From Raillietiella orientalis (taxonomy: Eukaryota), in NCBI GenBank assembly GCA_036172245.1, contig JAYWIR010000031.1, positions 2,356,001-2,420,000 of the forward strand: DNA of 64,000 bases, given 5' to 3'. The notes beneath the pieces are model-generated. The model made no database searches. It saw nothing but the letters and a program-made list of their open reading frames with translations, and was not told the origin of the DNA. A program made the position numbers and the translations under genes. This document shows positions 4,211-59,978 of this stretch, one piece after another (position 1 is the first letter of the stretch; each line of letters begins with the position of its first letter).

Positions 4211-6499
4211 TTTTTTTCTCTCTCTCTCTCATCGAGACCAGAAGCACGGGCTGCAGCAGTTGGTTCAATGACTGTTGTGGTCCAGCAATGTATTCCTGCA
4301 TCCCAGCGCCGTGTTCCTTGTCGTGCCAGAGCTCCGACACTGCGACCCATTTTTCATGCAGCCTCGCCGAAACTTTTAACGCAAGACCGGCTGCTTTCGT
4401 ACCCACTTGGCAATTAAAATTCCTGGATTCCAGTGTCGAGCACCGGAATGATCCCCTTGTGTTTAAGGCAAAACCTGCTGCAACCTTTGACACATTGCCT
4501 GTGCAACCAAGTGTTTGCATAGTCGTGTGCCGAGGCACCGGTAAAGCATGAGCGACAGCTGCCGGGATGCAGAAAAAGACGTGTATCGCAAATGACTTGG
4601 GGCACGCTACGGCCGGATGGCTCCAGATTGTATAACGATGGTGATGAAACTAATGGAACCAAAAGTAGATTGATTGTAATTTTCGTGTGCACTTTGCCCG
4701 ACTTTTATTAATCGTGACGAAGAAGGATGAAGATGGTTTGGAAACTCTCCAGCGACAGAATCTGAAATCACGAGTAGGAATAGCTGCAGCCCAAGCCACC
4801 AGTCGAATGCTCTCTTTTCGTTGCTTCGTATCCGATGCAATCGTGAAGACAAGGCAGAGCATCCGCTGGAAAACAAAATAGGCAAGGCAAGCCACTGATG
4901 CTGCTTTCCAACCCATTCTTAGAATCCAACTAATCTCAACGAAATCTCAGCTCGATCTTAACTAAATTACCACTTTGAGATCCTCATTATAATTATTCAA
5001 TGAACAGTCCGAAACGTATAACAAGTGCTGCTCCAGGAGATTTTCCACGTCGTTTGATTCCAGGACCCAGAACGGAGTGGTAATGACCGAAAGATGGAAC
5101 GTAGGTCCTGGCGTGACCAAATACTCGAAATTGAATAACGATAATTTGCTGACTCGATAATCACTAACACCGATTATTTTCTGATCTGGCTCTAATTCCC
5201 ATTAAACTTGAGACTCCCGTTCCGAAATTGGGAACGAGATCGATGCCATTATGATGACAGTGAGGCAATAATCAAGATGAAGCTGTCGACGGACGTCCTG
5301 AGAAAATGCTGAACGAACACAAACCATTCGACGAACCAAACATGATGTTCATCGCCTCCAGAGTGCCTTCTTCCAGGTAAGCGATTCGAAAGTGTGTTGC
5401 ATCTGTTATCTTCGTTTTCACTTTACTCCTTGATTTACGACAGGTGTACCCCCAGTGGCTCAATGACACGCATGAGAGAGTCAGAGAAAGCGCAATAGAG
5501 CTGCTGACAGGTTTGCAGCACACGAGGCTCGCAAATCCGTCCGTCAGTTGCATTTTCCTGGGGCAGAGTTCTTACATAACGTCACGCCCCAGGAATCATT
5601 AGCTGGTACCCCTCTGCACAAGAGTCCCTATGAGCAGATTTTGAGGAACGGTCTCGTTTCAGCTTTGTCCGGTTGAGATTGGGAGTACTACATGTTCTCG
5701 ATCACTACTGATTTTTTATTCTTGTACGTTTGAGGGCACTCGGGTCTTGAACAGCAAGTTGTACCTGCTTCCAAGCGAATCCGTCGGAAGGTGTTGACCA
5801 CAATTTCCGAGACCCGTCGCATTGACGGGAGGGTGTCTCCTTTTGAAAATTTGATTTTTGGGTGCAGCCTATTCCATACACGAAACCAACCATCCCGGGG
5901 TGCTCATACAACTGCACTTGTAAGCATGCTGAGCAGCCTGGGACAGTGAGTACATATAGATAAGGCATGTGTTATCTCGCATCCAAGCAACTCGTGGCTC
6001 ACGACAGGGAACGTAGCAACCACGAGGTGCACCGAAAGTGAACAGCAGAGGAGGCATCCGTGCGTACAGAAGCCAGTAGTTTAGGCTGGCAACCAACTCA
6101 AAGGCCGCGGAACAGATCAGCAACCAAAACTGCAATTCGAAAGCCAAGATCGAAGGCGTGCTTCGGTTGCTCAATCTGCCAAGCACTGAAACACACGAAT
6201 CGTTAACGGCGGGCATTCACGAACAGAGGGGGGACAGCCTTGACTTTCCTCATTAGAGGCGCCCATTCCACTAGCCGGAGTATTGCAGGTCGTCAGCTCA
6301 TCTACACCCACGCAACCCGAAGTGTGGATATACGCAAGGCTGACTGTCGGTAAAGGCACGATGAGGAATTTTACGAAATTGCGGAAGCTCTTGCAGCAGT
6401 GATCGCAACACGATCGGAAGGTCTCGGCTCATTGCAACTCATCCTCGGCTAAAGAATCATCAGTTACGCACCGACGAAAAATATCCGGGGAAACCTATT

Positions 6500-6744
6500 G
6501 TCTCCGTTCCTGAATTTCTTCTCCAGAGGGAGCCAGGAAGGGAACTGCTCCTTGCTCCTTGCTTGAGCAGCTCTTCTGACACTCTGGAGAGACAACACCC
6601 CGAGGGGGTATCAACCATCTCCATGGCCCCAATTTCTCTGCCAAAAGGAACCGGCCACCCGATTTCTGGAAGTACCTAGAAGAGTCAACTCCCGATCCCG
6701 GCCATCCGTGGGTTTCCAACTTCTACCCCCCGTCGGTGCTGCAC
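6500..6744 (-). repeat. Family H repeat, left part (interrupted by a Tx1 insertion)
   Basis: ACTCTGGAGAG, CTCCATGG and GGTTTCC..CGGTGCTGCAC blocks match the other H copies. Confidence 0.6.
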
Positions 6745-7974
6745 GTCTTCCGGGAGCGTGGGACTAGCGTCATTCCTTGCGCGCCCTCCAAGCAATCTCA
6801 TCCACTGTGGACTGTACCTTCGGCAGGTGGCCACGCTAGCCAGGAAAAACGCATGGATTTCGTAACGCCACGCGAGCGGTAGTGTCTGCCTGCAGGGAAC
6901 CGTTCACGCGCGGGTGAGGATCCAGGAGCCAAGCGCGAAACAGCTGCGAATTTTCCTGTACGCGCGTAACAACCGAACACTCCGGGAGATCTTGGAAAAT
7001 CCCGTGAAGAGTGCGTGGGAGAGTGGAACCTCCCTCGTCGCCACACTGTTCTCCCTTAGAGAGCATATGGACAGCAATCGCGGCAAAATGGTGGAATTTA
7101 CTGTGGAAATCTCCGGAAGCAGAAAAGGACTGGACGAGTGGACGATGGGCCAGTTCACTGACGCTGCGATCCCGATTGCTCGATCTCATGGACTTTTTGC
7201 GCTGGGGAATGCTACTGGATATTCTGAAGGAAGACCTGCAGTGGCCCCGGTACTTATGAACACTTGCACCCTCCCTTTGAAGTGGCAGGAGTCGGCGTTG
7301 ATGCTGCTGCACTAGGGCCTCCCGTGCAACGCCTGCCGGCATCTTTGGACAAGGGGGTGTTTGGATCCAAACTGTGCAAGGTATGGGGAACAAGAATCCT
7401 TCCCGCACCTCTTAGTGGACTGTGCTGCCCACTGGTCCCTTTGGGGACGCTTTACTGCGACCCTTGGAACTCTTGGAGACAACTCCAGAGACGTTTGAAA
7501 GCGTCTCTTCCTGAGCGAAGCCCTCACGCGAGCCACATCCCCAGCAGCACTTTGCTGCCCACGTGGCGGGACCGTAGATGCATGGAGCAATGCCAGAGAT
7601 CAGGACGATAGAGACGACATCTATTTTGCTGTCCTCTTCGTGAGGATAGCGTCAGGATGGCTGCATCTGGGAGTCTTGAAACGGGAACTTGCCGGCATCC
7701 TTACAAGGATGCAGAGGACACCCTCCAGCATCCGGTGATTCCTTCTCAACCCCCCCTATTTTTTGACTATGTTTTTCTGTTTTATTTTTTTTCTTTTTGT
7801 TTGTCCTCTCTTCCTACGTACTGTCGAGGCGAGTCCCATCGGCCTGCGTGCCAGTTCCCAGCAGGTTCCTACGAGATTCTCGTAGTTATTAGTAACGTGA
7901 CAGGATCAAACGTCCTTCCACAGACGAGTATTTTTATTTTTTATAAATAAACGCCCCGGTGTGACCGGGTGTCA
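6745..7974 (+). mobile_element. 5'-truncated Tx1-like non-LTR element (ORF2 C-terminus + 3'UTR)
   Basis: ORF 6914-7315 has TLREILENPVKSAW..WTMGQFTDA..LPLKWQESALMLLH; 3'UTR CTGCGT loop at 7844; AATAAA at 7946 followed by terminal hairpin. Confidence 0.9.
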
Positions 7975-8160
7975 TCCAGTGGCGCACCCGAAGCGCGTGG
8001 GCTAGTCAGAGTCATCCTGCGGAGTGGAATCGAATTCCACAACGCACCCATTTCTCGAGGGGGTGACCTCCACGTGGGGATTCGAACCTGCAACCTTTGG
8101 TGCCACGCCGTAGCTACACGACCGCCAACGCGGACCCCCCTCCATTTTCAGTCGACTTTA
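7975..8160 (-). repeat. Family H repeat, right part with two B-box-like motifs
   Basis: Minus strand GGTTGCAGGTTCGAATCCCC and GTGGAATTCGATTCCAC about 50 bp apart; homologous to 3065-3240 and 26492-26660. Confidence 0.7.
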
Positions 8161-14970: not shown

Positions 14971-16239
14971 TTACTACACTTTAAAATTGCTAACCCATGT
15001 TCACATTAACTAATTGAAAAATCACATAATAAACACATAGCAGGCGCAGCGCAGGGATCGATTATGTGCTGCTCCCTCTTGCAGGCATGAGGGAGATGAG
15101 GCTCCCTCCTTCTACTCAGACGCGCGAGCTCACCTCCGGGCTTCCTCAATGCTTCTTCAGCGCTCACATGACTCACCCGATAGCGGAAGTGGGTACAAGC
15201 TCCTACCCCTTAACTGTTCGTGACGTAAGCCCATGGCTCCGCGACGGGGAGAGCGCTCATCGGGTGGTTGTAGCTGGCACCACATGGCGTCACTTGCGTA
15301 GCCGCCGTTCCACGACTCGGTCCTGTGACGTCCCCCGGACTGCCCGAGCTTCCTTCCTGGTGGCTTCCCTTGAAGGAGACAACGTGGATCCACACAGCAC
15401 ACGAGCGCAGTGCCCACGGAACACAAGCCACAGAGCACTTCACCGCACCCCCTCAGAGCAGAGGGCGGCTCGCAGAAACGAAGTCAACGATCGGAGAGCG
15501 TGCAGTGTATTCGAGTCGCTTGGCTCGAGCCCGGACCGAAGAATAGCGACTCTGAAAAAAATCTTGTGCCAACTTTCAGCTGTGGGGAGACGAGAAACAC
15601 GCCTGGACAGAGACTCAACCATCGTGGGTCTCATTCTCTCAGTCATCTGGAAGATGTCCTAGCAGCCTCTGCATCGAGTCGTACGAAGAATAGGACATCC
15701 CTTGTTGCGCCGGATGGTGCAACAAGGGTGCAACACCATTCTTGTTTCCAGGCCTGGGGCAATGCCAACGGCTAGGGATACCTAGGAAGGCAGGACACAC
15801 GTTCGTAGCAGCATCAGGCAGCTCGTCAGAAACACACTGATTCACCAGATAGGGCAGCCAACGATGAGCATATGCCGGCCGACCAACCAGATGTCTCAGC
15901 ACCCACCCAACCCACTCGGCAGCTTCGTTGCAGGAAGCTGCTTCAGACTGCTGACTCCCCTGGATCCTGCAGGGATGATGGATCTCCCAGTGGTGGTGTT
16001 GCTTTTGTACGCTCGTTGTCGCAGCGCAGCCGGCCCTGAGAGAAAGCGATGGTAGCAGCCGACCGGGGGGTGGGAGTTGTTCAGCACCATCGCAGGAGTT
16101 ACGGAACTTCTGGTGCGAGCTGGTGAACTCCGCCACTCCTCGTTCTCGGGAGAAGGAGCTGTTTCGTAGGAACGAGCTTTCGAGGGTGTTTCCCGAAGAA
16201 CTTCTGATTCTTCCTTTGTGTCCGGAGGCTGGTTCCCAC

Positions 16240-17299
16240 ATTGAGGCTCAAGAATGACGTGGCGCCGCTTTTGCACTGGGGCTCTCCGTGCAAGTGGCTC
16301 CCACATCGTATCCGAAGGAGCTACATCCCCAAACCGCTCAAGGCCCAGACCGAATCGTTCCCGCACCTGCTGGTGGTCCGCAGTGGCCTCCGCGAACCGT
16401 GCTCCGTCCAGCCAGGAGCACGCGGGTGGAGATGACCCCCCTCGCTGCGGCGATGCCTTTCCTTAGGATGGCACTTGGTGCCAGCCAGACGCCGAGGTGG
16501 CAGGTCACCTGCGAGATTGCAGGCAGGACGAAGAAGTTAAGCGGTTGGACTATGGGACAGCTGGCAGATGTCGCGACCCTGAGCGTCCTTCCGCAAGGAT
16601 TGCGGCGCTGGAGCGAGCTGCTCGGCATCCCGACCGATAATCTGGAGTGGCAGGAGGCGGCTCTTTTGTTGCACTGGGGTCTCCCCTGCAACGCCCGCCG
16701 ACATCACTGGACTCTGGGGAGGGTGCGCCCGGAATGTGGCAGGTACGGGGAACAGGGATTCCCCCTGTAGCTGCTAGTCGGCTGTGATGCTCCGGCCTCT
16801 GTGGAAACGTTTCGAGCGACCCTCCAGATCCCGGTTAGCAGCCTCCCATGGACGTTTTCCGGTTGCTTTTCGTGCGGGAGTCCCTGCAGCCTTAGCAGCA
16901 CTTTGCTGCATCCGCGGAATTGTAGTGGCCTGGAGCGAAGCCGAGGAAGAAGGAAACGACGAAAGGGATGTCATTGAGTATGCATTCCGTTTCCTGCGGA
17001 TAACAACCCGATTGCCCCGCCTGAGAAGCATGCAGAATGACCTCGCCGTGATCCTGCAAAGGATGGACACTGCCTCCAGTAAAAGTGATCCCTTCCCCTC
17101 CCTCTAAAGTGGTTTTTTATTTGTCTTTTTATTTTATGTTTCTTTTTGTTTTCTCCTCATCCCCCTCCGCTGCTGAGGTGAGTCCCGTCGGTCTGCGTAC
17201 CGACAACCCGGCGGGTCCATTGATGTGTTGACCGTAACGGGGCCTCGTACCGCAGTTGTTATCGAGTTTATAATAAATGCCCGGCGTGACCGGGTGACA
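16240..17299 (+). mobile_element. 5'-truncated Tx1-like element with 3'UTR
   Basis: TPRWQVTCEIAGRTKKLSGWTMGQLAD..WQEAALLLHWGLPCNARRHHW..LAALCCIRGIV; hairpin 17187-17204; AATAAA + CCCGG/CCGGG hairpin. Confidence 0.9.
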
Positions 17300-17599
17300 C
17301 GTCGAAACGCACGTTCTGTATGGTTGCTTAGATGGTTGGCTTCAGAATGTAGGCCACCTCACAGGATTTGCAGGAACCCCAATGCCGCAGTAGCCGTCCC
17401 TCCGCGATTCTTTCGATTTCCTGGACTTCTGCGTGATCATGTGGATCTCCTTCAGGAGCATCCGGGTCGAAGTTTTCGCAGCGTGGTGGCTACCAACGTG
17501 GTCTTCTGCCATCATCGCGCATCCCGTTGGCGTTCCAGAAGGCCACGCTGATTCTGGGGCAGGAGGCAAGCCTATATTATATTCCTGGGAAGTTGGAGT

Positions 17600-18850
17600 T
17601 GTAGCCGGGGAGCTTGGAGCTCGGGTGGGGCGCGAACAGAGATATCCAGTGCTTGAAGCACCTCTGCGCATTCATCCTCGCTGATTTCCTGCTCGTCGAC
17701 TTTCTCACCTCGGGCATCCCGCGTTCCCATGATGCCGGCTTGCCCTTCGGGTGCCAGCTCTTCCTCCTCGCGAGGGAGGACATACCGCCATGGGGTCTTG
17801 GGCTTTCGTTCCGACTTCCGGATGGGGGGTGCCTCGACGTGCTTCCAACCTCGCCGTCCCTTCGGGGCAGCGGACCGCCTCAAGGGCTTTTTCACGGCCT
17901 GGGCTGGCTGCCGGCACCTCCGCTGCATGAACAAAGGCGGCACCCTCGCTGTCAAAGCAGCTGACCCTGTTCTTGAAGAGAGCGTTCGCTCTTGAGCATT
18001 TCGGCTGCGGGTGCGGTCTCTTTTGCGGTGGCAGCTTCGATTGCCGGGACGCTCTCGATGACCAACTTGCATTTTCGGATTTTGTCGCACAGAGGGCTGG
18101 AAATCCAAGGTATTAATGGACCAGTTCACCCAGGAGGATGTCAAGATTGTCTGCTCATCAGTGGGCGCTAACAACTGGCGCCGTAAGGTTTTATATGCGG
18201 GTAAAGAAGAAGTTCTCCGTTTCTCCCCCCCCCCATTTTTTTCTTTTTGGATTTCCCCAGCTGCCAGCCCTCTTTAATGTCAGCTATTTCGGAAATTTGC
18301 GTTTCGGACTTCTGCTGCTCGTGTTGGGACCTTGGCAGCTGATGTCGTTTGTCCTTTTGTTTTTTCCCTCCACCTGCAGTTTGACAGCGCGCTTTCCTTT
18401 CCTGATTTCTGCGCCATTGAGGACCGGGGATACACTTGTCTAATGTGTCCCTTGTTTCCGCATTGATGGTACTGGATGTTAGGCGGCCTCTTTTGCAGAT
18501 GTCTTGTGACATCACAGTGGCCACAGTACTTGAGCTTCCCCACGTACCAAAGATAGACCAGCTCATTGCCGACCTTCGGCTTGTGGAGGAGTCTGCCGTT
18601 TTTGCGCACTGTGACGTGCGCTGCGGCCAGCCCACTGAAAAGCCTCCCAAAGCCCTCGAAGGTGAGAGCGTGCACGGTGCCATGTTTTTCAAGCTCCACA
18701 TGCACCGCGTTCTTGGACCCGCATCGAGGTCACGTGGTTGCGGTCTCCGCGCGTGGTACCAAGCGTCTGGAGTTCGAATACTCCGAAAGAATCGACGTCA
18801 AGAGATGAGGGGTGCGTCGTGGGTCCGAGTTCCTCCCTTAAGATGATGCT
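17600..18850 (-). pseudogene. Decayed Tx1 ORF1 (RRM-like + CCHC knuckles)
   Basis: ELEKHGTVHAL..LWYVGKLKYCGHCDVTRHLQKRPPNIQYHQCGNKGHIRQVYP aligns to the ORF1 at 60447-62262. Confidence 0.8.
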
Positions 18851-18899
18851 GGTTGGCCTCTATTCGGGTGCTACACGAGAAGCGGTTCAAACTTAATGT

Positions 18900-19380
18900 C
18901 CCCAATGAGTGGATGGGATTGGGAATCGACCCTCCGGGATCCTTCCAGGGAACAAGAACAAGGAGTGGGTAGTTCCCCTCCGGTTGTGCGAAGGAGCTGT
19001 CCCTCCCCCTCGTGGATAGACCCTCCGTCTCGTACCACGGAGTAGATGTGGTACCTCTTCAAAATGCACAGAAGCGTGCCGCTCCCTTCGGGGGCCCTTG
19101 TGAGAAATTTCAGAGGCTTCCATTTGGAATTCTTTTCAGAAAAGTAAACAGGAGCAGTTCCCTTGAAGACTCCCTCCGGAGAAGAAAAAACGGATCGTAC
19201 TTCTTCGGGGTTCCCTTTCGAGACAACCAGAGTGGAGGTGATCTTTATTCCGATGATCCCTCCCCAAGCTTAAGAGGAACCGACTCCCTTCTCCGGAGCC
19301 CTTCCTGGATTCATAGAGTGGTCCCTTCCAGGGGTACCCCTTATCTTGAAGAATACACGCACCCTAGGGTGGCGTGGAAC
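18900..19380 (+). repeat. Family H repeat, opposite orientation
   Basis: Reverse complement of blocks in 21830-22200, e.g. TTCCTGGATTCATAGAG..GGGTACCCC. Confidence 0.55.
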
Positions 19381-19739
19381 AGCATGAAAGCTCGAGGGCT
19401 ACCAGTTGAGCGTGTGCGGAGGTTCTGGTAATACTCAGCAAAGCCAAACAAAAGCTGAAAGGAAAACACCGTTTTTGGGCATGCGGAGCGTGATGCCTGT
19501 TCGATGGACCACTACATTTTCTCGCTCCCAGAGAGGATGATTCCGTGGGGAAGGACGTCCTCACATCCATTGTTTCGGGAGAGGAGATCGATTCGTTTCC
19601 CGGAGCATGCCCAAAAACGCTGTTATTGCTTCGGGAAAGGAATCAGTCTCCTCTCCTCCAACATCCATCTTGATTTCTTCAGGCATCGCTGCCATGAGAA
19701 CGCTGTCGATGCATCAATACTCAAACACCAAGGAAAAAA

Positions 19740-21779: not shown

Positions 21780-22390
21780 CTATTTCCAAGATGCAAATCC
21801 CCATTTTCATCCCACCCTATCAAGTTCAAGTTGGGGTAGCCCCGGAGAGACTTCTCTACGAGTCCAGAAAAGCTCCGGAGGAAAGAATCTGTTACGTTTG
21901 GGAGAAGAACCCCGAAGGGAAACTCTTCTTTATTCTCTCTGGAGAGACCCCTAGGAGGGGATTGATCCTCTGAAGAGAATCCCCAAGGGAGGTTTCCAAT
22001 TTCTCTGGAGGTTCGCTCCCCGAAGGGAGAGGCGCGCTTCTTACACTCTGGAGAGGCGACCCCCCGAAGGGGGGAGTATCGACCAGCTCCACGGTATTCG
22101 ATAAACGGCTCCATTGCCCCATTCTCACAACCGGAGGTGAACCACCGAAGGGCTCCTTGATGCCCCGGAAGGAACCCCGGAGGGTTAACTTCCAATCTCG
22201 GCACCAGTTCACGGAAGCATCCAGGGGTTTCCAGGCCCCACCAGTGCCGCACCCAAAGCCTGTGGTCAAACCAGCGTTCCCTGCAGCTACCCACGAGGCA
22301 TTTCTCATTCTCGGCGCCGATCCTCCACGTGGGGATTCGAACCTGCAACGATTGGTATTACTCCCGGAGACCATACGTAGCCACAGACGG
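21780..22390 (-). repeat. Family H repeat, longest uninterrupted copy
   Basis: Many short hairpins (minus strand CTCCC-TTCG-GGGAG etc.), B-box-like GGTTCGAATCCCC near 22331-22343, single ACCAGTGCCGCACC at 22240-22253. Confidence 0.7.
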
Positions 22391-24329
22391 TACGACTGAC
22401 TGATGAATGCCAGGAAGAACGAAAGAGCGAAAGAACCATCACAGTGACGGAAAAAAGAAATAAAATTGATAATAGAAGGAAGGATGTCTTGTAGCATCAG
22501 AAGATCGTTTCCATTGGGAGATCTTAACATTAGGAGGATCAGCGTCTCGGTTTTCCCCGGCAGAGAAATGCCGAGGCAGAAGCTCTCCAGTAGCTCGAAC
22601 ACCCCTGCAAGGTTTCAAATCAGAAGCAGGGAATCAGAAAATGGGAACACTTCTGGACTGAGTGAAGGGAGCGCCCACCACCAAGCTCCGCCGATTTTCA
22701 CTATATGGCACTGAAAAACGCGCCCCTCGGAAAGGCTGCCCAAACGACACGCTTGCCAACTCGCAACGACTGCCTAATGACGCTTTTCCTACGCCCCGTG
22801 GAACCGTTCGGAAGCTCTGCACTTCCCAGAAAGATTCTCTCCGTAGCTCTCGGTCGGGACCTCACCTACGTTGCCGCCAGTCCGCAGGTGGAGGGCTTCT
22901 TCCTTTCTAGGCAAGGAGGTCCGTTTAATGAGAACCTCCGCATCGAGAGGGAAGCGAGCAATCAAGCAAATCAAAGTGCAACGCGATTCATCAGCAGAAG
23001 GGGTCCGTCCCTTACTCTCTCCATGACCGTTTCCTCTAACTACTGCTCGGCCTCATTACGTCGGGGAGATGGGATCGCGCTCGAATTTCGCCGCGCTCCA
23101 CTTTTCTTCCACCCCACTTTTCCCCAGTCGATCGAAGGGTATCCGACCGGAAAACCTGCGCGTTTGCGCACCTCGCTTTAAAAAACTGCCTTCTGGGATG
23201 ACGAAAGAGCTGCAGCTCGTCCACCCGAAAAGGATCCTCCCTAGCAAGCGGAAGGAGAAGAATTCTTTCCGCGGATCCGTGGACAAGAGTTCGGCTTCGA
23301 CTTCCGGCTGCCGGAGGCTGATTCCTCTCCTTCTCCCAAACCTCAAGAAACCTCTCCGAGAAGCACACTACCCTGAGCCAGACTCCGGAGGTGGCTGTCC
23401 GGGATCAGTGTGGGATTGAGGTTCGCAAATTCCCCGGGTCCGCCGTCAGGAGCGCTCGTTCGGCGTGGAGGTCATCCATCACTGGGATGCAGAATCCCGA
23501 AGCCATCCTCTCGAATCACCTCCGTGCCCATTCGCAAGCGAAACGACTACCCCACACACTGCGGCGCGCGCTAGTCGCGCGACGTGTGAAGGAGAACCAG
23601 TGGGTAGTCTCGCAGCAGATCTCATCTCTTCTCTGCAAGATCCCGGTCAAGTTGGGTGTCTGGCAGCAAGAAACGAGCCACCTTGGGTTGGGAGGCAAGG
23701 CGTAGCTTCCTGACGACTCTGTTTCCGCATGGCGTGAGTCAGCGGCAAGAAGCGTTCTCTACTACTGTTGCTGCTGCTTCTGTATTCCCCACTAGAGGGC
23801 TTCGGGGAACAGCAACACTCAGAAAACGGGAAGAAGGGGAGGTGGGAGGAAAAAGTAGGGAGCAAAGACGTTCTCGACAACGATGATCCCCACTTTCCGA
23901 AATGGTGCCTTAAAGCTCCAAGCCTCTAGGGTTTCTCCTCAGTTGCGTTCTGGGTCAGCCACCACCGCAGTAGCACACGGTGCACTTGCCCCAGGTTGTG
24001 AGAAGGAGGTACGGAAAGCATCATCCTATGCAGTTTGGGAGTGGAGGGAGGAAAATCATGAAAGTGCGACTCTTCCGGTTCATCTACTCTGCTCGATTAG
24101 AGTGGAGTGACCACATCACGAGTACATATTTCTTCCCCCCTCATGGTGAAGAAATGGCGATGCCACGGATACGATGATTATCACCAGGTTATAACGGGGC
24201 ATTTATTACGTAAAGTGATAAAAATACCCTTTGGTGGAACCCTTGGTTCTACAGTTGGCAATGAACCTGCCGAAGAGTGATGCTCAGACCAGCGAGGTCC
24301 TCTTCGGCAGCGCGGAGGAAGAGGAAACA

Positions 24330-25100
24330 ATAAATAAATAAATAAACACACAAAACAGGGGAGAGGAAACTATACACAAAGAAGGATCGAGGAAGGGATC
24401 ACAGTACGCTTCCTGTAGTCCTCTGCATCCTGTTCAGGATGCTGACAAGTCCCGTTTGTTCTCTCCCAAGTGAGATGATTTCGAAGTGGTCCTTAGGAAG
24501 ATCTGCGCCCAATGGATGGAGTCCTTGACGTTTCAGTCTCTTCTGGCCTTTTGAGCTGCTATGATCTCGCGAAAATAGCAGAGGACTGTGAGGAACGTGG
24601 GCGGCGGTGCATCGCGTCACACGCAAAGAGGCGTCTGGATATGTCTCTGGGGCTGCCCGCCGTGATACCGGGGATCGTCGTGAGGCCACCCCAAAGGGAT
24701 CGGAGGGCAGCACGATCGAACAGACAGTGCAGGGGAATCTCTTTCCACTCCCCTATGGCCAGTGGTGAAGGCGCGCTTTGCATGGAATCCCCCATCCCAA
24801 TACCATCAACGCCAACTCCTGCCACCCGAGGAGGAGAGTGCCACTATTCTAGCACGCCGGGTGCAGCTCCACTTCCTCCAGAGGGATGCCGAGCTTCTCT
24901 CCCCAGCGTACAAGTCGGTAGGATGGGACACTCGGGTCGCAGACTCTCCGTCACTCCCGAGCTGTCCACGCCTTTAGAAGTTTCCTCTTTGCTTCTATGC
25001 AGCAAGTCACTTCCCACCTTGCCCATCACGTCGGATATGGTGATAGAAGATGAATCAGACCTTACTCTACAATGCTTTTCACTGGCACGTCAGGGAGTCC
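24330..25100 (-). pseudogene. Decayed Tx1 ORF2 C-terminal fragment
   Basis: Nucleotide similarity to 12230-12830 (e.g. GGCGCGCTTTGCATGG, GAGTGCCACT..AGCACGC, CACTTCCCAC). Confidence 0.7.
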
Positions 25101-25619
25101 CCAGCCCTCCCTTCTCACAAAAGCCAATGGAAGAGACGCAAGCGCGAAAGAAACACTAGGAAGCAATGCCCAACTGTGGATGGATGAATGAGTGGAGCGC
25201 CCGCCAGCAATTTTATGCCGATCCGGGAAGATCTCGATTAACCGATATCGTCCCGCTTTCTAACCAGAAGAAACGGATGAGCGCAAGTGAAGAGCTGCAT
25301 TTTCGGCTGCGCTGAAGTGGCGTCATTTTTTCTTTTTTTTTTGCGTCCATTTTGTTTCTTTCCGAAGTAGACTAAAACGGGAGTCGATGCCGGTCATGAT
25401 CTTCTCATATACTCGAGATTTTTGGATGCTGTTGAGACTTCTTGGAATCTGGAAACTGAGACCCTGGAATTTCTCAACTTTCTTGGAACCACAAGAATTG
25501 GATTTTGTTGTTGTTGTTGTTGGGGAAGGAGGAAAAGAGGTTCGCTAAGGGGTTTGCTTGGAGATTCACGAAGCTCTTTGACACTGTTCCATCCCTCCCC
25601 AGGGTGCGTGTCAACCATT

Positions 25620-25772
25620 CAAGTCAGAAAATGCCCCAGGAGGAGACCACCCTATGAATCCAGGAAGGATTGACCTCCAACCCTCAGGAAGGGACGGCGG
25701 AGGAAGGAATCCGTTCCTCTCACGCCAGAAAAGGGGGCATCGGGGGTTTCCGGCTTCCACCGGTGCTGCACC
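25620..25772 (-). repeat. Family H repeat, left part (interrupted by a Tx1 insertion)
   Basis: GGTTTCCGGCTTCCACCGGTGCTGCACC matches 3037-3063. Confidence 0.65.
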
Positions 25773-26491
25773 CGCACCTCCCTCCCTTGAAGTGGTAGGA
25801 GTCAGCATTCATGCTGCTGCACTGGGGCCTCCCGTGCAACGTCCGCTGGCATCATTGGACACGGGAGGGGAGGAATGAACCCGAACTGTGCAAGGTGCGG
25901 GGGCAGGAATCCTTCTTACACCTCCTAGTGGACTGTGTTGCCCTCCGCCCCCTTTGGGGACGCTTTGCCGCGACCCTTGGAATCCCCAACAGCAACTTCA
26001 GAGACGTTTGAAAGAGCCTCTTCCTGCGCGACGCCCTTACGACGACCACATCAATAGCAGCACCACCCTGTCCACGCGGCGGGACCATGGCTGCATGGAG
26101 CAATGCCAGAGGGGGCCAGAACGACAAGGACGCCATCTAATTTGCTAACCTCTTCATGAGGACAGAGTCAAGATGGCCTCATCTGAGAGTCTTGAAACAG
26201 GAAATTGCAGGCATCCTTACAGGTATGCAGAAGACACCCTCCAGCACACAGTGATCCCTTCCCGAACCTCCCCCATTTTTTGACTGCATGTTTTTCGTTT
26301 TATTTTATTTTATTTTTGTCTCCTCTTCGCCTGTGCTGCAGAGGCGAACAAGCTGGCCTGCGTGCGAGTTCCCAGCAGGTTCCTTCTCGTAGTTATAAGT
26401 AATGCTGAAGGATCACGCATCCTGCCAAGGACGTGGCAGGATGCGTGATGTTTATTCTTTATAAATAAACGCCAAGAGTGACATGGCGTCA
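25773..26491 (+). mobile_element. 5'-truncated Tx1-like element flanked by a degenerate 14-bp TSD
   Basis: LPLKW*ESAFMLLHWGLPCN..LVDCVALRPLWGRF; 3'UTR; AATAAA + ACGCCA/TGGCGT hairpin; flanks ACCGGTGCTGCACC / ACCAGTGCAGCACC. Confidence 0.9.
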
Positions 26492-26660
26492 ACCAGTGCA
26501 GCACCAGAAGCGCGCGTGCCAGTCAGCGTCATCTTGCGGGGTGGAATCGAATCCCACGACGCACCCATTTCTCGAGGGGGCGACCCTACACGTGGGGATT
26601 CGAACCCACAACGTTCGGTGCCGCGCGCGGAGGCTGCAGGCACGCTGCCGCCAACTCAAG
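26492..26660 (-). repeat. Family H repeat, right part with two B-box-like motifs
   Basis: Minus strand GGGTTCGAATCCCC and GGGATTCGATTCCAC; homologous to 7975-8130. Confidence 0.7.
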
Positions 26661-29600
26661 AATTTGGTTCCGAATGTAAGCAATCAATATGATTCATCAA
26701 AAATGTCCGGGGACCGCACTTCCTGGAAGGATGGACCCATTCTACGCTAAGTGGAGGCATAGGCATGGAGTTTCCGCGTTTACCGTCCACTTCCATGTCC
26801 ACTCCTCCGGTTCTCTGTCACCATTCAGTGCACTCTTCCAAAGGCAAGCCGACTCGCGCATTTGTTTCGGTCGATTCCCTGTAGCAGGCTGGTTGAAGAA
26901 AAAGCTCCGTAGAATTAGTAGAAGCAGAAAAGTAGAGTAAAAGATAATATGCTTTGGAAATGGCACGTTTTGATGGGCACCGGAAGGTTCGATCTTAGCT
27001 CCCGTATGGGCTATTCCTTTAATCGAAACCAGGTTTCTTGGGGTCGGATTTCTTTGTGCTGTGCATCTGTTTCCCCGGAGAAAAGGCAGCTTCCTTATCT
27101 ATGATTTAATGAGGGGAAAGTAGAATTACGCAAATCCATTCATCCCTAAGGTACACACGCAGAGCTGGAATTCACGTTTCGACAACACAGAGCCTGTGGA
27201 TTCTCCTGCTGGACGTTGAAAGTGCGCTCCACAAATCCACTGATAAATCGCAAATCTCAGGGTAGAGTGTGAGATCCCGGAACAATGGAACTGGGAAAAT
27301 GCCTCCGTCAATTGCAAAACACCCAAACACCAAGCAAACTGGATCGAATGATGAGAATGATGCTTGGATGAGAATGATGCAGAAACGGCTGCGAAGGAAG
27401 AGAGGGAAGAAGAAAACACAATTGCGCTGAATAGATCTTCACTTGCAAATCCTTTTTCAGCTTGAGGTGCTCACCAGTGCAGTGACTTGTCCACCAGTGC
27501 AGGTATCCACAGACCTTGCAAAAGAGGCTAAGTGGAGCCACAACAAGGGTGTCGCTGAATTCCTCACCACGCACTTCGCATATGCTTGCTCGAGCAACAC
27601 GCTCGACTTTACACGCATGCACAAACACCCATAATCTTGCCGAAAACCCATGGAACAATCGGAAAGAAAGCATTTGGCATTCCACAACACCTCTGCGCGT
27701 CGATGGACTCGGCCCAGCACTCGCTCGCACTTTAATAAAGCCCAATGCCACCGCATGCTCTCAAAGGTTTTGTGCTGGTTTCATGATACCAAAAACCCTT
27801 TGACTTGAAAGGTAATTTGTCGGCTGGCCAGTAGACTGTAGTCAATGAATTGCCAGTGAATCAGCCGCAAACACCACCCACTCCGGCCTTGATCTAATAA
27901 AAGGATGCACTCTGCCTGGCAAAAGTGGGTTCTGGAAAACATCGGCAAACCTCAATATCGCATTGGGAGCAATTATTATTCCGATCAAAGATAGCCGTTT
28001 TTTTTTCTTCTTTTCTTTCCTTCGTCCTTGCTGCAGTGCATATCTTGAATTATTGCTGGCTCAATTCTTCAGGAAGGTTATTGCAGCATATTGAAAGAGA
28101 TGTTTGCACGAATCCTCATGCGTAGACCTTCCGATGAACCCATTTTTATCCGTGGGAACAAGGACCTGTAAAAGATTGATGTCGCGTTTGCGAAGGACAG
28201 AACAAGATAAGCGCAGAAACACTTATCTACCATTATGATGATCACGGAGAAGATTAACTCTGGTAACAAAAAAACTTATCCTGGAAACATAAGAATGGGC
28301 ACGACACCTAAAGATAGTCAGTTTCCCAGCATGGCACCAATCTGCATCGAGCGGGTTAATCAGACATCAGCTTTTTCACGAGCATGCATATCAGATCCAG
28401 AGTCACTCGTCACCCTCTTCATGCTTTCAATGCCTTTCAATTCGCGTGAGGGTTCCCTCCGGAGAAGAAATTCCTACTAGCGGATCCTTTTGGGTACCCA
28501 TCGTTAAGCCCACTGCTCGGCGGAAGGACCAACCCTGCTGACGGAAGCAAAAAGCGCTTGGACGCTGATCATCTTTGAAATCTCTAATTCTCAATGGAAG
28601 GGCGTGCCTTCGTAGGAAACGGTCAAGAAAGGCAAATATGTCATGTAAACAGCTATATTCTTCACTATTTGAGACTTAAAGACTGTTTTGGAATATGAAG
28701 TAAAAAAAAAAAAAAAAATCCAGTTTGGTGCAAAGGTTGCTAACAGAAGTCTCTGGGTATCCTTTTTTCCTTGCTGAAATTAAAAGCAAAAAACACGCGA
28801 CAGATCAGAAATAACCACAGAGTTTCGCGATTTATTGAGTTCAATCTTTGCAGTTCCTATTCTCAATCTTTCCACTGGAAATGATGTAAAAACACGTTGT
28901 GTATTGAGGCATCCACATCGTATGTGTTCCCGTTTGATCGAATTAGACGGCGTCCCTTCGGAAAAGAACGGCAACAGCAGGCAAACCAAGGAATGTAAGA
29001 AAATACGACTCCATGAAAGGAGGATGAATGTTTTATTCAAAGCGCACGCTTCGTTACAAAGGGACCTTTATTTACAGAACAAGAAACGTGCAGAAAAGAA
29101 GGAAGCAAGCAAGCCTTCTCCCAAAATACCTTCCGACATTTCAATGGCCATGCAGGAATGCAATCAGGAAGAAAGCTCGCGAACAACATAGAGGGGAGAA
29201 AAAAAAATCACATGATTCTAAGAATACCAGGAGGGGAAGGGATGTTCCAAGCTCAGTACCTAAGGCCTCGAACGATGCAGGCGACTTCTTCCCTGTCAAC
29301 CTGTGAAGTGAAGTTACTTGTCAACTCCACGCACCATAAGAAATCTCGATTATGGCCTCCTTCTCTTCCTGAGGTGTCTTCCGTCTCAGGCGTGCAACCG
29401 CGATGCCACAGACGCCATTACCACGGCCGTGGAGAGTCTCTGGAGAAGAGTGAAACGTCTCCTCAAGAGCAGGAGGGTGTTATAGTTCTGAAGAGCTGTA
29501 GCTATCCTCATCCATCCCGACAGAAAGGCATCGCACTCCATCGAGAGGTGCAGCAGCTTCTCGCTCTTACACACCTTAGGCAGTGCAGAGAGAAACTCAT

Positions 29601-35749: not shown

Positions 35750-36265
35750 CTACATTTTGCAAAGACAAATCACCAAAGGGATGAAGGCAGCTAAAGTCAC
35801 AAGGATTGGGATGAACATATATGAGTTATGTGTAGAATAAGGATTTGGCTGTCTAGATGCACCTATTCTTCGAGGCTTTTCAGGATTCGAATATTGCTGC
35901 TGATCATCTTGTAATTCGACAGACTCTTCTTCTGCTTCAGGGATAGAAGGTAACTTTGGAATATCTTCCAACAAACTGCGATCTAAAATACCACTTAAAT
36001 TTCTTAAAAGCAATGTCATTTTACCATTCTCTGTGCTTTTTAACAGAACAATAGCATTTACTTTGGGATTATCTTTGTAGCCCTTTACGAAATCAATTCT
36101 GATTTTGCCATTATGAACCTCGGATTCTTCATCATAATATATAAGTTTTCCATCCTTTATCGTGAATTCAATATATTCATCATGGGCAACTCCAAATCCA
36201 ACGTTATCAAAGATATCTAATTGTGGCACAACTGTGTGCTTCCTGTTTAATGCAACATCAAATAC
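35750..36265 (-). CDS. MLEC: Malectin, exon 2 (a possible additional 42-nt in-frame intron at 35983-36024)
   Basis: VFDVALNRKHTVVPQLDIFDNVGFGVAHDEY..DNPKVNAIV, acidic linker, PNPY, C-terminal TM helix FIPILVTLAAFIPLVICLCKM*; TTTAG acceptor ending at 36266. Confidence 0.95.
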   Translation of the reverse strand, partial: VFDVALNRKHTVVPQLDIFDNVGFGVAHDEYIEFTIKDGKLIYYDEESEVHNGKIRIDFVKGYKDNPKVNAIVLLKSTENGKMTLLLRNLSGILDRSLLEDIPKLPSIPEAEEESVELQDDQQQYSNPEKPRRIGASRQPNPYSTHNSYMFIPILVTLAAFIPLVICLCKM

Positions 36266-36309
36266 CTAAATATCCCTCAAATACAAAATCATAAAAAGTT
36301 TTTGTTTAC

Positions 36310-36660
36310 CTTTTCGCCTGGAGCTTTAAAGTACACCTCAGAGAATTTCAAAATTAAGAGATACGATCCATCCTCTTTAACTGGAATGTCATAACCGAAT
36401 GTTGAATGATGATACCTTTCAGTCTGGTACAAGATCTGATCATTCTGTGGTATTCTTGCTATCAGCAAATTCATTCCATAAGATGAGGCGATTCCAATTT
36501 TGTTGTGCAACGGGTCGGCATCATAGTGTATGCCGTGTACATCGACATGTTCACCACCACCTGCATTTATGGCATAAACAACTTCAACGGTCTGCGACTC
36601 ATAAATACACGAAAAGAGCCACAAGAACGTACAAAAGGATTTCATCCCTAATGAACCCAT
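36310..36660 (-). CDS. MLEC: Malectin, exon 1 (signal peptide + malectin domain)
   Basis: [46 protein letters not shown] donor at 36309; a 44-nt intron joins it in frame to exon 2. Confidence 0.96.
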
Positions 36661-39600
36661 ATGACAACTTCTGATATCCTTCTTGAGGTTTGAAAACGAA
36701 CAAAATCGAGCAAACTTCCTAAACAGTCAAAAAACATTGCTGCATTACTTCCACTTTCTTCATAATGCAGAGATTAATGAAATTCGTTGAAAATAACTGA
36801 TCAGTCCGTAAAAGGTTTCCTGTAATCGGCAAATGAAGTTTCACGTGTAAAGTTTTGGGTTACGCACTGACCGCTTCTTCAAGGCGCAGCGTCGGCACTA
36901 TTAAAAATATCCCTTTGTCGGCAGGGTCACCGGCAGGAGCACCGGGAGTGGACGGACGGGACCAGGATCTCCTGGATCATTTAGTGGTTCCACAGGCTCT
37001 TCCCATTGCCAGTGGATTTGCATGTGTTTTGGCAGCAGCCCACGACCCGCACTCCACCGTTCAACGCGCGGATTGCGTTGGCCACGGAAGTTCTCGTGAG
37101 CTCGTGGTCACCTGACCAGGTGTTTTCGAAACGCCTCGAGCCCACGGACCAACTCGCTGCTTTCCTTTTATCACTCACTCATACTCCTGGGAAGTCTAAC
37201 GAACAATTTGGATCTGTGCTTGACGTTGAATAGCAGAAACCACAATGGTGAAATCCGAACATCCACGGTTTGCGAGATCAGACGCGTGTTCGTGACCCTC
37301 ATGACCTTCGTAAGCTTAGTCGGTCGAAATCCATTCCCAACTCGAATGATTTCATTCATTGAACGCACAGGCAGTTCAAAAAGTCAATGCTTGGTTGTAT
37401 ATTGGTTGGAAAGAAAAGAAGAAGAGAAAAAAAAAAGACCTTCTTTGTGTCATGAGCTGCTTTGCATATTTGAAATGCCACGTCACAATTTCACAGAAAC
37501 TGTAGTTGTGGTACAAACCCACAGACCTGGACAAAAACGACGTCGGAACAATCCCATGTAAAATTGGTAAGTTTTTTCTTTACTTTACTCCGGTGCTTAC
37601 TCTTTCTGGTTTCCAAAGAGCGCTCAGATTCTATCAAAATAATGATTCCTAGTGATATATCTCATAGACAAAACATTCCTGCTTGCTCTTTAGTTGTGCT
37701 TCTAACAGACTCCAGAATCGTCATTTTTGCTTATATTAGTAGAAGTCAGTTCTTAAAGGGAATTGTGTGACCTGAGAATTTCTTAGGGCATGGGAACCTT
37801 TTTTCAAAAAAAAAAAATGTCTTCACGAAATTGGTCAGAAGTGTTTCATAATACCTTCTTCCATGCTACTGAAATGTAAAGCCTTTTGCATCTGTGAAGG
37901 CAATCTCTATCTCCTACCAACATTTGTTCTGCTTACTCCAAGAGGTTTCATTCTTTTGTTAAACCAATGATTTGCTTTCCCATCAGCAATGTTTTCTGGC
38001 AAACCAAAAGGGCACAAAATGATTTGTGGAGTTCTCAACTAACGCAAGTTCATTTGAAAAAATGGTCTTTAGAATATTTATAGACAGAAATATGTTGTTC
38101 ACCATACGGTAGATGAACATTTAGTTTTGGAATCTGGAATTTATTTATATCTAACTTGATCCACCATCTGCAATTAGCTTTTCGTGTTACCAAGAGTTCT
38201 AAATTTAATTTAACAAATCAAACAGCAGGCATTGTTTTCTGTCATATATAAAAATACACCACTGCAATACAGAAGCGATACTATGAATAAAGAAAAAAAA
38301 AAATTTTTTCCTTCAAATATGGACTCCTTTCAGATTGTTTTAACAGGAATCCGGTTGGTTGAATGACCAGATGGCACGCAGAGTATATTTGGCGGATGCT
38401 ATGTCTGTTGAAGAAGAAGGCATTTGGAATGCTTCATGGCACATCAAAGTGAGCATTCCTTATAGGTCCAACAGCTGGAGGCCATTTGCAGTCATCATTT
38501 GAAAATGTCTTCCCAGTAACTGCCTTCATTTCTGTTCTTTATGCACTTTTGGGAGTGTCGGATGAGGTTTTGTTTTGGAAACGCTAAATCCATCGGTTTC
38601 CATAGAGAATTTGCGATTCCGAATTTCTTTTTCCTTGTTGTAATACAAAGGAATCTCGTTTTAATGCATATTCTTTTACTTGTTTCTGTGAAAATGCAGT
38701 CTGGGTTCATGTTTTGGGTGCAGGATGGATAATGATGTCGCGTTCTGCTTGTTGTTTGCCATCTTTCTTTCAGCTCTGCTGCATTTTGTTTTCATGAGGC
38801 ACATCCTCGCATAGCAGGTGTCAGCGTTCTGAGAACACCCTGTAATTTTCCTGCTTCTTGGCAATCTTGGGAGTTTCAGGGGATCCAAGTTGGGATATGT
38901 TTCTTTCCGACTCTCGCTAACTGTACATCCAGATTAAGAACGTCGTTTTTGCTTCAAAAAGTGCATTCTGTTTCTCCCTTTGTTGTTGCTTTCATAATTT
39001 CATATCAAGGCGTAATAGCAGCAAGAAGTAGTAGTTTTGCAGGATACATTCATAAATTGCATGCTCATGGGTTTCCAGAAGTGTTCGATGCTTTGTCTTG
39101 TTTCGTTTTTCCATTTGCTGCATGTGGTTGATTCCATCTGTTAAGTGGTTCTGTCATGGTGACGCTTTCCTTTCGAATTTTCTGTGAGCTCCCAACTTTT
39201 TTTTTTTCCAGCACGTCTTAGCAAACAGACGAATCAATAAAAATGGAAGGTGTTGCCTTTCGAAAGCACGACGGGTGCTTTCAACCCGTTGAGCTTTCAA
39301 CGAATTCCTCAGAGGTACAAAGGGAACAAACCCTGTGTACGTCAAAAGTGCACTGTGGAAGTACATAGGAGTGGCATTCACTAGAAGTTGCCAAGATAAC
39401 TGCAATCCTGTGTGTATGAAATGTCTTTTCCTTGCTATTGGACAGTTTAGTAAGAAACTGGCATGTTTCTTGTAGACACCACCGTCCAATCGGAGTTTCC
39501 AATTTCGCTGACATGACATTTCTTCAAAGTTGATGCAGAGAATATTGGAACTTGGTGTACACTTTTCTCATCAAGAACAAGAGCATGGTCCATCAAGGCT

Positions 39601-48050: not shown

Positions 48051-50673
48051 GTTGCCACCCGGGTACGCCCAAGGCGTTTATTAATAATAAAGAAAACTCT
48101 ACAATCGCGGTACCAGGCCCCGCTCACGGCCTTATGCACGGGACCTACCGGGACGCCGAGACGCAGCCCGGCGTGGCACTCCCCGGCAGCGAAAGAGGAT
48201 GGGAAAAAACAAAAATAAAAACAAAAACGCAAACAAACAAAAGAGGTTGAAGGGCAGGGAAGGGATCACTGTTCGCTGAGAGGAGTGCCCATTTGTTGAA
48301 GGAAGCCCTCGAGGTCCATCCGTATATTCCCCAGTTGGGGCCATCCAGCAGCTCTCCGCAAGAAGCGTTGGGCATATGGGATGACATCCCGTGCGTGTTG
48401 ACCCACTCCTTCCTTGTTGGTGTCGCTCCATGCCGACACGATGCCTCGGACGCAGCACAAGGCTGCAAGGGCTGCGGCTGGCTGCAGGGCGTCCTTCACG
48501 AAGAGGGGCCGAAGAACGTCTCTAGGGGAACTGCCCGTAGGGAGACCGAGGGTCGTCCCGAACCGTTCCCAAAGGGGTCGGAGGGCAGCACAATCCAGAA
48601 TAAGGTGGGGAAGCGACTCCCGCTCCCCGCACCTGGCACACGCAGGATCCACAGCTCCCCTCGTCCAGTGGAAGCGGCGCGCGTTGCAGGGTAGACCCCA
48701 GTGCAACAGGAGCAACGCCGACTCTTGCCACTTGAGGGGCAGGATCCTGGATTCCTTTATCACCGGGGGCCACTTCAGCACATCCATAGGGATGGCCAGC
48801 AGCTCGCCCCATCTTCTTAGTCCTCGCGGCTGGACGCTCGGGGTCGTGGCGTCCGCCAGTTGACCCATGGTCCAGCCGCTCATTCTCTTCTCATGTCCCT
48901 CGATGCAGCAGGAGACTTGCCACCTTGGCGTCCGACTGCTGTGAAGCGCCCTCCTCAGGAAGGGCAGCGCCGTAGCCAGGCAGGTTGTCTCTGCCCACGT
49001 GCTTCTAGCTGGATTCTCCAGGAGATTCCTCAGAGTGCAGCGGGCGTAGGGGCTGCATCGGAGACGATTCCACGTTACGTGGCTTTTCTGATTCACCACT
49101 GCCCACGTTCCAATATTCTCCTCCAGCCTGGCGGAGGAGTCGGCGGGGCAGCAAACCATCCAGCTGTTCTCCATGGCCAACGATGCCATGCGCCCGAGCT
49201 GTAGGCCGCATCTTCTGATCTTCCGGCCGGGGCACAGAAGAAAAGACGCGAGTCCCTCGCACCGGGACACACGACTGGCGAGGAGGCGAGCCGGAATGCA
49301 CCACGTGGGGCTCCACATCTTCGCTGCGATGGCGAGGGTACGCCATCGCAGCTGTTTCTCCACGCGCTCCAGCGTCAGGAGGCTAAGTCCGCCGTCCCGA
49401 CGAGGAGCGCAAAGGTCCTTCAAAGGGACTCGGGGCCTCCCCTTGCCCCAAAGGGCGATGCGGAGAAGGTCCTTCGTCCTCTTTTTAACAACTCTTGGGG
49501 AGGGGCAAACAAAAAGCAAGGGGCGGAGGATGGGGGTCGCAAAGGCGTTCCAAACCGCGGCCCGTTCCGGCAAGTGAAACTTGCCTTCCAGGAACGGGCC
49601 GATCGCCGTCTCGACTTTTTGGAGGCAGCTGGACCACGCTTCCGCAGGGGAGAAGTCCCCCAACGGCACACCAAGGTACTTGATGCACCTCGCCGTGGGG
49701 ATCCCCAAACGGACCCAGTCCTGCTGCCCTGCCCACGCCGCACCAACTGGCACCACCGACGACTTTGCCCTGTTCACCTGCAGTCCGGTCCCGCGGTTGA
49801 GCAGGTCGAAGAAATCTCCGACCGCCTTCGCCGGGGTGGACATAGGTAACAGGAGCAGAAGGTCGTCGGCATAGGCTGCTACGGCGGGCGTGCCGGGACA
49901 CGAGCTCGGCAAGGAGGCCAAAGTCACCCTGTAGGCTCTCAGCACCAACTCAAAGTGGGTGCTAAAGAGCAGGGGGCTGAGGCTATCTCCCTGCCTTATG
50001 CCCCGCCGCACCGGCACGCCATACACCTTGTGGCCGCTGAAAGAGACGGTAATCATCGCAATCCGCCAGCAAGAGCGCAGGTAGGATATCAAGGAGGGTG
50101 GGAAGCCCATGCGACCCAGGAGCTCCAAGAGGAGTTCCTGGTCTACACAGTCGAACGCCTTATGGAGATCGACTGCGATCGCTAGGGCTCCCTTCCCCGC
50201 CCCGGTGTCTCTTCCCAGCCCCGCTGGTGGCCCCAATGTGGGGTTGCCGATTTTCCCTTTCCCTTTCTTTTCTCTCCTTTGCAGGTGCATCCACGTGCTT
50301 GCGAAGAAGAGGTTGGCGTCCATACTTCGCCCGGGAACAGCATAGGTCTGCTCCGGGCTAATTATGGACTCTGCCACCTGCCCCAAACGCGAAGCCCATG
50401 ACCCTGCTAGCAACTTGGCGTCCGTGTTCACGATGGTGATCGGACGCCAGTTGTGCAATTTCCTGAGGTCTCCCCCTTTCGGAAGGAGCCTCACTCTGGC
50501 TGACCGAAACGAGGCGGGAACATCGCCTTCGTCTCGGATCAGCCTTGTCAACACGAGCAGCAGGGGGGCAAGCTCTTCCGCGAAGCACTGAAAGAACTCC
50601 GCGGGCAAGCCGTCCTCCCCTGACGCCTTACGTCTCTTGAGCCTGTTGATACCGGCGAGAATTTCGCCGGTAG
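48051..50673 (-). mobile_element. 5'-truncated Tx1-like element A
   Basis: Uninterrupted RT-to-stop frame; 3'UTR; AATAAA + hairpin + GGCAA end. Confidence 0.95.
48266..50673 (-). CDS. ORF2 RT + C-terminal zinc finger of element A (5'-truncated, otherwise open)
   Basis: NWRPITIVNTDAK, DLHKAFDCV, GIRQGDSLSPLLF, YADD, KYLGV, CARCGERESLPHLILDC. Confidence 0.9.
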
Positions 50674-50880
50674 TTGCCACCCGGTCACGCCGGGGCGTTT
50701 ATTAAAAATTCTCTTTGATTCGTGGTACGAGGCCCCACTACGGCCAACTCAACTGGACCTGCCGGGTCGCCGGTACGCAGACCGGCGCGACTCTCCTCGG
50801 CAGCGGAAGGGGGTGGGGGAAAAAACAAAAAGAAAAATAAAACATAAAAAACAAAAAGATTTGGGAGGGTTGGGGAGGGA

Positions 50881-59900: not shown

Positions 59901-59978
59901 CGTCGTCAAAATGTACGACGCCAAGATCAAGCGGATGAAAGCACGGAGACGAGAGCGAAGAAAAACACGTCCGCACTC

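Follow-up and report, generated by a model that had tools for sequence, protein, structure and literature searches.

Many LINEs of the Tx1 clade show a preference for their targets, including a preference for particular families of transposons, and the examples in the parts of PMC4494074 drawn on here include Tx1L in the Tx1D element of Xenopus, Keno in U2 genes, and Kibi and Koshi in microsatellites. The same source places crocodilian LINE families in Mariner, LTR and Harbinger elements, with Tx1-Mar in Mariner-N4_AMi and Tx1-9_AMi in Harbinger (PMC4494074); in zebrafish, Mutsu is found in 5S rRNA, Keno in U2 snRNA and Dewa in the tRNA-Leu spacer (PMC3706591, PMC4494074). Among the open papers that we searched, none described a LINE of the L1/Tx1 group aimed at a SINE-like repeat.

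The locus considered here lies in a 64-kb stretch of DNA (the window, by which we mean the whole stretch that was analysed). In it two LINE copies, A and B, which belong to one subfamily that we call AB, interrupt two copies of a repeat, family H, and the H copies c1, c2 and c5 are uninterrupted. The features are as follows.

25380-25758, minus strand: left (body) part of H at locus A, by BLAST and MAFFT against the other H copies
25759-25772: left copy of the H motif at locus A, ACCGGTGCTGCACC
25773-26491, plus strand: LINE copy A, 719 bases, a 5'-truncated ORF2 C-terminus (zinc-binding motif region) and the 3'UTR
26492-26505: right copy of the H motif at locus A, ACCAGTGCAGCACC
26506-26680, minus strand: right (head) part of the locus A copy of H; its two B-box-like T-arm motifs read on the minus strand
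6480-6730, minus strand: left (body) part of H at locus B
6731-6744: left copy of the H motif at locus B, decayed, cgtcggtgctgcac
6745-7976, plus strand: LINE copy B, 1232 bases, of the subfamily of A, ORF2 from residue ~708 and the 3'UTR
7975-7988: right copy of the H motif at locus B, decayed, tccagtggcgcacc
7989-8156, minus strand: right (head) part of H at locus B, up to the H border ...cagtcgac, which is common to c1
2700-3240, minus strand: H copy c1, not interrupted; its single motif is at 3050-3063, ACCAGCGCTGCACC
about 21840-22400, minus strand: H copy c2, not interrupted; its single motif is at 22240-22253, ACCAGTGCCGCACC
18733-19400, plus strand: H copy c5, not interrupted but decayed, oriented opposite to the others

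This arrangement resembles that of Tx1L, Tx1-Mar and Tx1-9_AMi, as portrayed in the passages cited above, in that an APE-type LINE occupies one set position in a dispersed repeat and its 3' junction is constant, and it also shares with them a variable 5' truncation and a target-site duplication. It differs from them in that the target is SINE-like, with B-box motifs, and antisense, in that two copies were seen, and in that the similarity shown for the element is to the L1 group. Like Keno, Mutsu and Dewa, again going by those passages, it would use a multicopy sequence of pol III/snRNA type as a safe target; unlike the targets of those three elements, H is a decayed dispersed repeat, and neither a tRNA gene nor a spacer.

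Each uninterrupted H copy has the 14-bp H motif, ACCAGYGCYGCACC, a single time, and each interrupted one has it twice, on both sides of the LINE. The first-pass annotation, made from the sequence alone, had claimed as much, and we find the motif at all four places beside the inserts as well as in c1 and c2. At locus A the left and right copies are alike at 12 of 14 bases, with 2 mismatches; at locus B the corresponding pair at 6734-6744 and 7977-7987 reads cggtgctgcac and cagtggcgcac, with 8 of 11 bases alike; and the site in c5, taken in reverse complement, is cgtgtagcacc, the motif again being present once. With up to 2 mismatches allowed, ACCAGYGCYGCACC has 8 matches in the window as against 1.69 expected, and none of 100 shuffles gave 8; three of the eight (at 151, 5021 and 46385) lie outside H and are chance-like.

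The duplication was placed on a MAFFT alignment in which the four flanks of the inserts were entered separately beside the uninterrupted H copies c1 (2640-3250), c2 (21840-22400) and c5 (18720-19420, reverse complement). The motif columns of this H alignment coincide with the end of both left flanks and the start of both right flanks. Because the left flanks end, and the right flanks start, in the same columns, a duplication of ~14 bp of one H site brackets each insert, and since both flanks occupy the same H columns, the duplication rests on homology to H, beyond mere likeness of the motif copies. The motif on both sides of each insert is a target-site duplication. Such a length is normal for this LINE family, as is seen from copy I, which has a 13-bp duplication (11 of 13 bases alike), and copy F, with ~13 bp.

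Both inserts are on the plus strand and their 5' truncations differ, as had been proposed (~0.7 and ~1.2 kb). A tblastn search that took copy C of the window as query (frame of 1097 residues; 50738-54031, minus strand) recovered copy A in one stretch as residues 899-1068 of that frame, and copy B in one stretch as residues 708-1050, so that the 719 and 1232 bases begin at residues ~899 and ~708, respectively, and the truncation of B lies ~525 bp further 5' than that of A. At both loci the left motif copy directly adjoins the 5' end of the LINE. The 3' junction is constant: copy A ends in AATAAACGCC, a hairpin and GGCGTCA, and runs from ...GGCGTCA directly into ACCAGTGC, and copy B runs from ...GGGTGTCA directly into TCCAGTGG.

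Nine LINE 3' ends can be recognised in the window.

about 7971-7976, plus strand: 3' end of copy B
about 17296-17299, plus strand: 3' end of copy F
about 26488-26491, plus strand: 3' end of copy A
54011, minus strand: 3' end of copy D
about 50675-50678, minus strand: 3' end of copy C
about 48054-48056, minus strand: 3' end of copy E
24182, minus strand: 3' end of copy I
11996, minus strand: 3' end of copy G
about 45222, minus strand: 3' end of copy X
26465-26491 (A) and 7947-7976 (B), plus strand: the conserved 3'-terminal AATAAA and stem-loop, present at 9/9 of these ends

All nine have AATAAA(C/T)G, then a short stem-loop, then (N)CA, and no poly(A). The stem-loop has 7 predicted pairs, its stem is conserved in 9/9 copies at pair 35-50, and there is one compensatory pair. 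An end of this kind, with AATAAA and a stem-loop and no poly(A), suggests that the reverse transcriptase is stringent about the 3' ends it recognises. A maximum-likelihood tree built from the final 712 bases of the nine copies joins A and B in one clade (support 100/100); the remaining groups are G+I (98/99), C+E+F (91/91) and D+X (100/100). This clade, and an identity of 78.5% between the inserts over 713 columns, bear out the common 3'UTR subtype that the first-pass annotation had seen in A and B. The two AB copies in the window (2/2) lie at the same H position, and H adjoins the 3' end only in A and B: the 3' flanks of the other seven of the nine, which belong to three other subfamilies, are unrelated to H and to each other.

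Copy A carries three premature in-frame stops ahead of its frame-ending stop, and has no poly(A); copy B likewise has three in-frame stops, and the end branches of A and B in the tree are 0.15 and 0.12. Both copies are old and long dead, and in the best reading their subfamily is now extinct; the 64-kb window holds no full-length AB copy. The 3'UTR of copy A also contains a near-perfect 16-bp inverted repeat at 26412-26449 (gatcacgcatcctgcc...ggcaggatgcgtgat), of which 11 bases are absent from B.

The nature of the element can be read from its sister copies in the window. Copy C has a reverse transcriptase domain (RVT_1, 2.6e-21) and a match to zf-RVT (0.005) that is weak and below the curated cut-off, and other sister copies have an endonuclease domain (Exo_endo_phos, 1.5e-9, at 59884-60498) and a weak zf-CCHC match (zinc-knuckle ORF1) at 60658-61611. 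The APE, RT, C-terminal zinc-binding and zinc-knuckle ORF1 parts were seen in sister copies, and not in A or B. As this set is also that of the L1 clade, it does not single out Tx1. The best solved relative of copy C is human LINE-1 ORF2p (PDB 8uw3, 8sxt, 8c8j; E 1.9e-40 over residues 192-558), far ahead of R2. Like human LINE-1 ORF2p, the sister copies have APE and C-terminal zinc-binding domains; unlike human LINE-1, the LINE ends in the window have the AATAAA and conserved stem-loop in place of a poly(A) tail. Relatives in the databases are at most 29% identical (the named ones 20-29%), except for one unnamed metagenome protein at 66-71%; those with names are mostly plant L1-like proteins, with a few from fungi/chytrids and one from a fish, and no relative named Tx1 is among them. 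From the domain set and the best solved relative we assign the LINE to the L1 group; the narrower label Tx1, which the first-pass annotation had used, is unproven.

At locus A the left part of H aligns at 84% between 25730-25773 and 3020-3064 of c1, and at 74% between 25576-25668 and 19390-19300 of c5; missing from this H copy are ~330 bp of the body, which are present at locus B and in c2 and c5. The B-box-like sequence GGGATTCGAACC lies on the plus strand and is exact in A, B and c2 and decayed in c1; the box itself is GGTTCGAATCC on the minus strand, inside a T-arm-like stem. Since GGGATTCGAACC is on the plus strand and the box on the minus strand, the B boxes are antisense to the LINE, as had been noted before. 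The insertion site is ~40 nt from the nearer T-arm-like box and ~90 nt from the farther one. At 2 mismatches the 12-mer GGGATTCGAACC is found 8 times with 6.3 expected, and so is not rarer than chance; its exact matches are only in H.

The first-pass annotation had called H a tRNA-box repeat. Of this description the B-box-like T-arm stands, and the tRNA part does not: ARAGORN predicted no tRNA genes in the window, and Rfam gave no matches at gathering score in the window and no tRNA at E up to 10 on two H heads, so that a tRNA identity for H was dropped as unproven. H is SINE-like, with B-box-like T-arms, and its derivation from a tRNA is not supported by ARAGORN or Rfam. We also considered H as a SINE partner with the tail of the LINE, and rejected this since the terminal hairpin of the LINE is absent from H: no 3' tail common to H and the LINE was found, the hairpin motif being present only at LINE ends in the window. 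As a further observation, the H body (2700-3240, 21840-22400) consists on the minus strand of repeated short hairpin modules with UUCG-type loops, and c1 has perfect stems of 14 and 10 bp.

Human L1 shows only a loose TTTT/AA target preference. For the two copies described here we consider it probable that they arose by independent, target-primed insertions of a LINE subfamily that preferred one site of H. AB would be an APE-type, L1-group LINE that used target-primed reverse transcription at this preferred SINE-like site, antisense to the B boxes. The element's endonuclease would nick the bottom strand immediately to the left of ACCAGYGCYGCACC; the 3' stem-loop end of the LINE, which lacks poly(A), would be where reverse transcription begins, and a cut of the top strand ~14 bp further on would leave the motif duplicated, the cDNA being 5'-truncated at a separate point in each event. 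The claim that this subfamily targets H is thereby upheld in part: in two copies of one subfamily we see directly the same site, the ~14-bp duplication, the constant 3' junction and two different 5' ends; set against these are signals of a copied insertion and a sample of two. From these observations we infer the independence of the two events, and the endonuclease as the source of specificity; two decayed copies at one spot (n=2) hint at a site-specific element.

Searches outside the window bear on the copy number of the subfamily. In a public DNA run, 29% of sampled words of the locus were present, in contigs of ~150 nt, which were compared with 24800-27300 at 80% likeness. One contig spans the 5' junction of A (25667-25817) with 0 differences; cover is nearly nil at 26396-26479, and the 3' junction of A is uncovered. 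Over the ORF part there are 2 to 11 related contigs per listed site, with 6 to 11 at most sites from ~26015, and for this reason we take the subfamily to be multicopy. Nine of 83 contigs are 90-95% like 24800-27300, and these may fall inside or outside the LINE; the maximum likeness of A to B over 150-column windows is 84.7%, which is below that of those nine contigs. There are 26 sites, among the 40 of 109 that were listed, at which at least 60% of the depth is unlike A, and at these B has the majority letter at 19, the letter of A at 5 and another at 2, a comparison that is compatible with independent insertion and with a copied insertion alike. At 26010, about half of the related read-contig depth has T instead of G. 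A metagenome scan with the conserved 3'-end pattern gave 6 loci, none of which matched the window by BLAST; these are chance-like, unrelated and probably of prokaryotic DNA.

That the two loci might be duplicates of a single insertion, with a later deletion, had been named beforehand as the reading opposed to targeting, and on this the evidence divides. In this main rival reading, one insertion into one H copy would have been followed by copying of the LINE together with the H head or more, whether the composite was duplicated or was carried along when H retrotransposed, and later by a deletion that took 525 bp from the 5' side of the LINE at locus A and by rearrangement of the H bodies; we regard both the copying and these later steps as possible, though rather unlikely. 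The right H flanks of A and B speak for it, being the closest pair (110/127 bases, 86.6%, versus 70-76% for the other pairs, p=0.0015) and as alike as the inserts, for which 573 of 686 aligned bases agree in the same comparison (83.5%); the divergence of the right flanks does not exceed that of the inserts (p=0.43). The head variant of A and B occurs, in the window, in 2/2 H copies with the LINE and 0/3 uninterrupted copies. An in-frame TGA is common to A (26009-26011) and the homologous codon of B, where the sister subfamilies have a sense codon. The left motif copy has CGG and the right one CAG at both loci, an asymmetry that also counts for copying; this position is a CpG site, at which c5 also has CG, and so parallel decay is plausible as well. 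Copying is favoured too by the letter of A that B has against the read-contig majority at 5 of the 26 listed sites, by the distance of 18.7 kb between the loci and their common strand and orientation, and by a dN/dS of 0.69 between A and B, which is not significantly below 1 (p=0.14), so that separate active masters are not proven.

The left sides of the loci argue the other way. Among all pairs of left H flanks, that of A and B agrees least, at 50 of 74 aligned bases over 120 bp (67.6%), and these two flanks have diverged further than the insert has (p=0.0014 for 120 bp; p=5e-7 for 250 bp). In addition, the H bodies of the two loci differ by large indels. A later deletion in locus A would have to begin within ~3 nt of the junction of motif and LINE and yet spare the whole left motif. 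Both GCACC copies, that of the motif and the LINE's own, are present in A, so that the junction is not a slip-deletion between repeats and a microhomology deletion does not account for it. The two loci are homologous precisely up to the H border and no further, their outer flanks being unrelated, which also rules out a segmental duplication exceeding H. The relation of the loci is a mosaic, in which the LINE and H head seem to be co-inherited, and the H body and 5' junction seem independent. We give most weight to the exact 5' junctions, because a later deletion would have to begin within ~3 nt of them, and it is this weight that ranks independent insertion above a copied single insertion.

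Within the preferred reading of insertion by a site-preferring LINE we count one variant, which is speculative and which we hold to be doubtful: the LINE RNA might read through into the H head, and homology-guided priming might then home it to other H copies. The right flank would in that case be copied along with the LINE, and the left flank would remain that of the target. This variant explains the mosaic best, since the right flank is as alike as the insert, the left flank is unlike, and the head variant is found only with the LINE. If it were true, a read-through LINE would both parasitise and rewrite a SINE-like repeat.

Preference could instead be a property of the DNA, and not of the LINE endonuclease: a fragile or structure-prone H site (the CpG-rich near-palindrome CAGCGCTG) might capture LINE cDNA without sequence-specific nicking. 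The motif of c1 does contain an 8-bp palindrome, and H is hairpin-rich, with a minus-strand RNA fold of z = -7.3 in c1; the fold of c2, however, reaches merely z = -1.5, the seven remaining LINE 3' ends, which represent three sister subfamilies and share this H-rich window, all lie away from the site, and the regular duplication of ~14 bp, similar in length to those of I and F, is a mark of endonuclease-dependent target-primed reverse transcription. We think it improbable both that such a capture took place and that the preference lies in the DNA. Chance placement of two unrelated insertions at one H position has nothing but the small sample in its favour and is hardly credible, as two random insertions would both fall 2 nt or less from the site, whichever of the 5 H copies they hit, with an estimated probability of ~1.5e-7, and both inserts are of one subfamily and in one orientation.

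AB is thus a plausible L1-group LINE with a target site of its own, and such LINEs aimed at other repeats have been described already. Because L1-group LINEs that target other transposons or small-RNA genes are well documented, current understanding is left unchanged; if borne out genome-wide, AB would be a further L1-group LINE whose 14-bp target is defined and lies in a pol III-type repeat, and it would be useful for comparing how APE endonucleases gain specificity and for dating the activity of H and of the LINE in this genome. If the targeting is true, most 3' flanks of AB copies genome-wide should start with (A)CCAGYGCYGCACC and continue into the H head, and the 5' truncations should vary.

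The sister copies show other features of their own. On the minus strand, from 62316 to 44661, there is a head-to-tail chain of the LINE copies D, C, E and X, followed by an ORF1-like frame at 45722-44661. The 3' ends in the chain (54011, about 50675, about 48054 and about 45222) directly join the next copy with no target DNA between them; at the first three joins the next copy is 5'-truncated, and at the C-to-E and E-to-X joins an 'AC' is common with the internal sequence of the downstream element. This looks like template jumping by the reverse transcriptase or serial insertion at 5' junctions. Copy F (about 15838-17299, plus strand; 15824-17312 with its flanks) has as its ~13-bp duplication CGTCGAAACGCAC, and lies within a LINE of the antisense orientation; the APE and ORF1 parts of that LINE are at 17271-18717, and its 5' end adjoins the head of the H copy c5 at 18733.

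The window as a whole is a repeat-rich eukaryotic stretch with one clear host gene, which encodes malectin.

35750-36726, minus strand: malectin exons in two adjoining open frames, Pfam Malectin 3.2e-14, animal-type

Those of its relatives that have names are malectins from animals, ~300 residues long and 34-44% identical, and the gene lies in an island of 35-40% GC among repeats of 55-62% GC.
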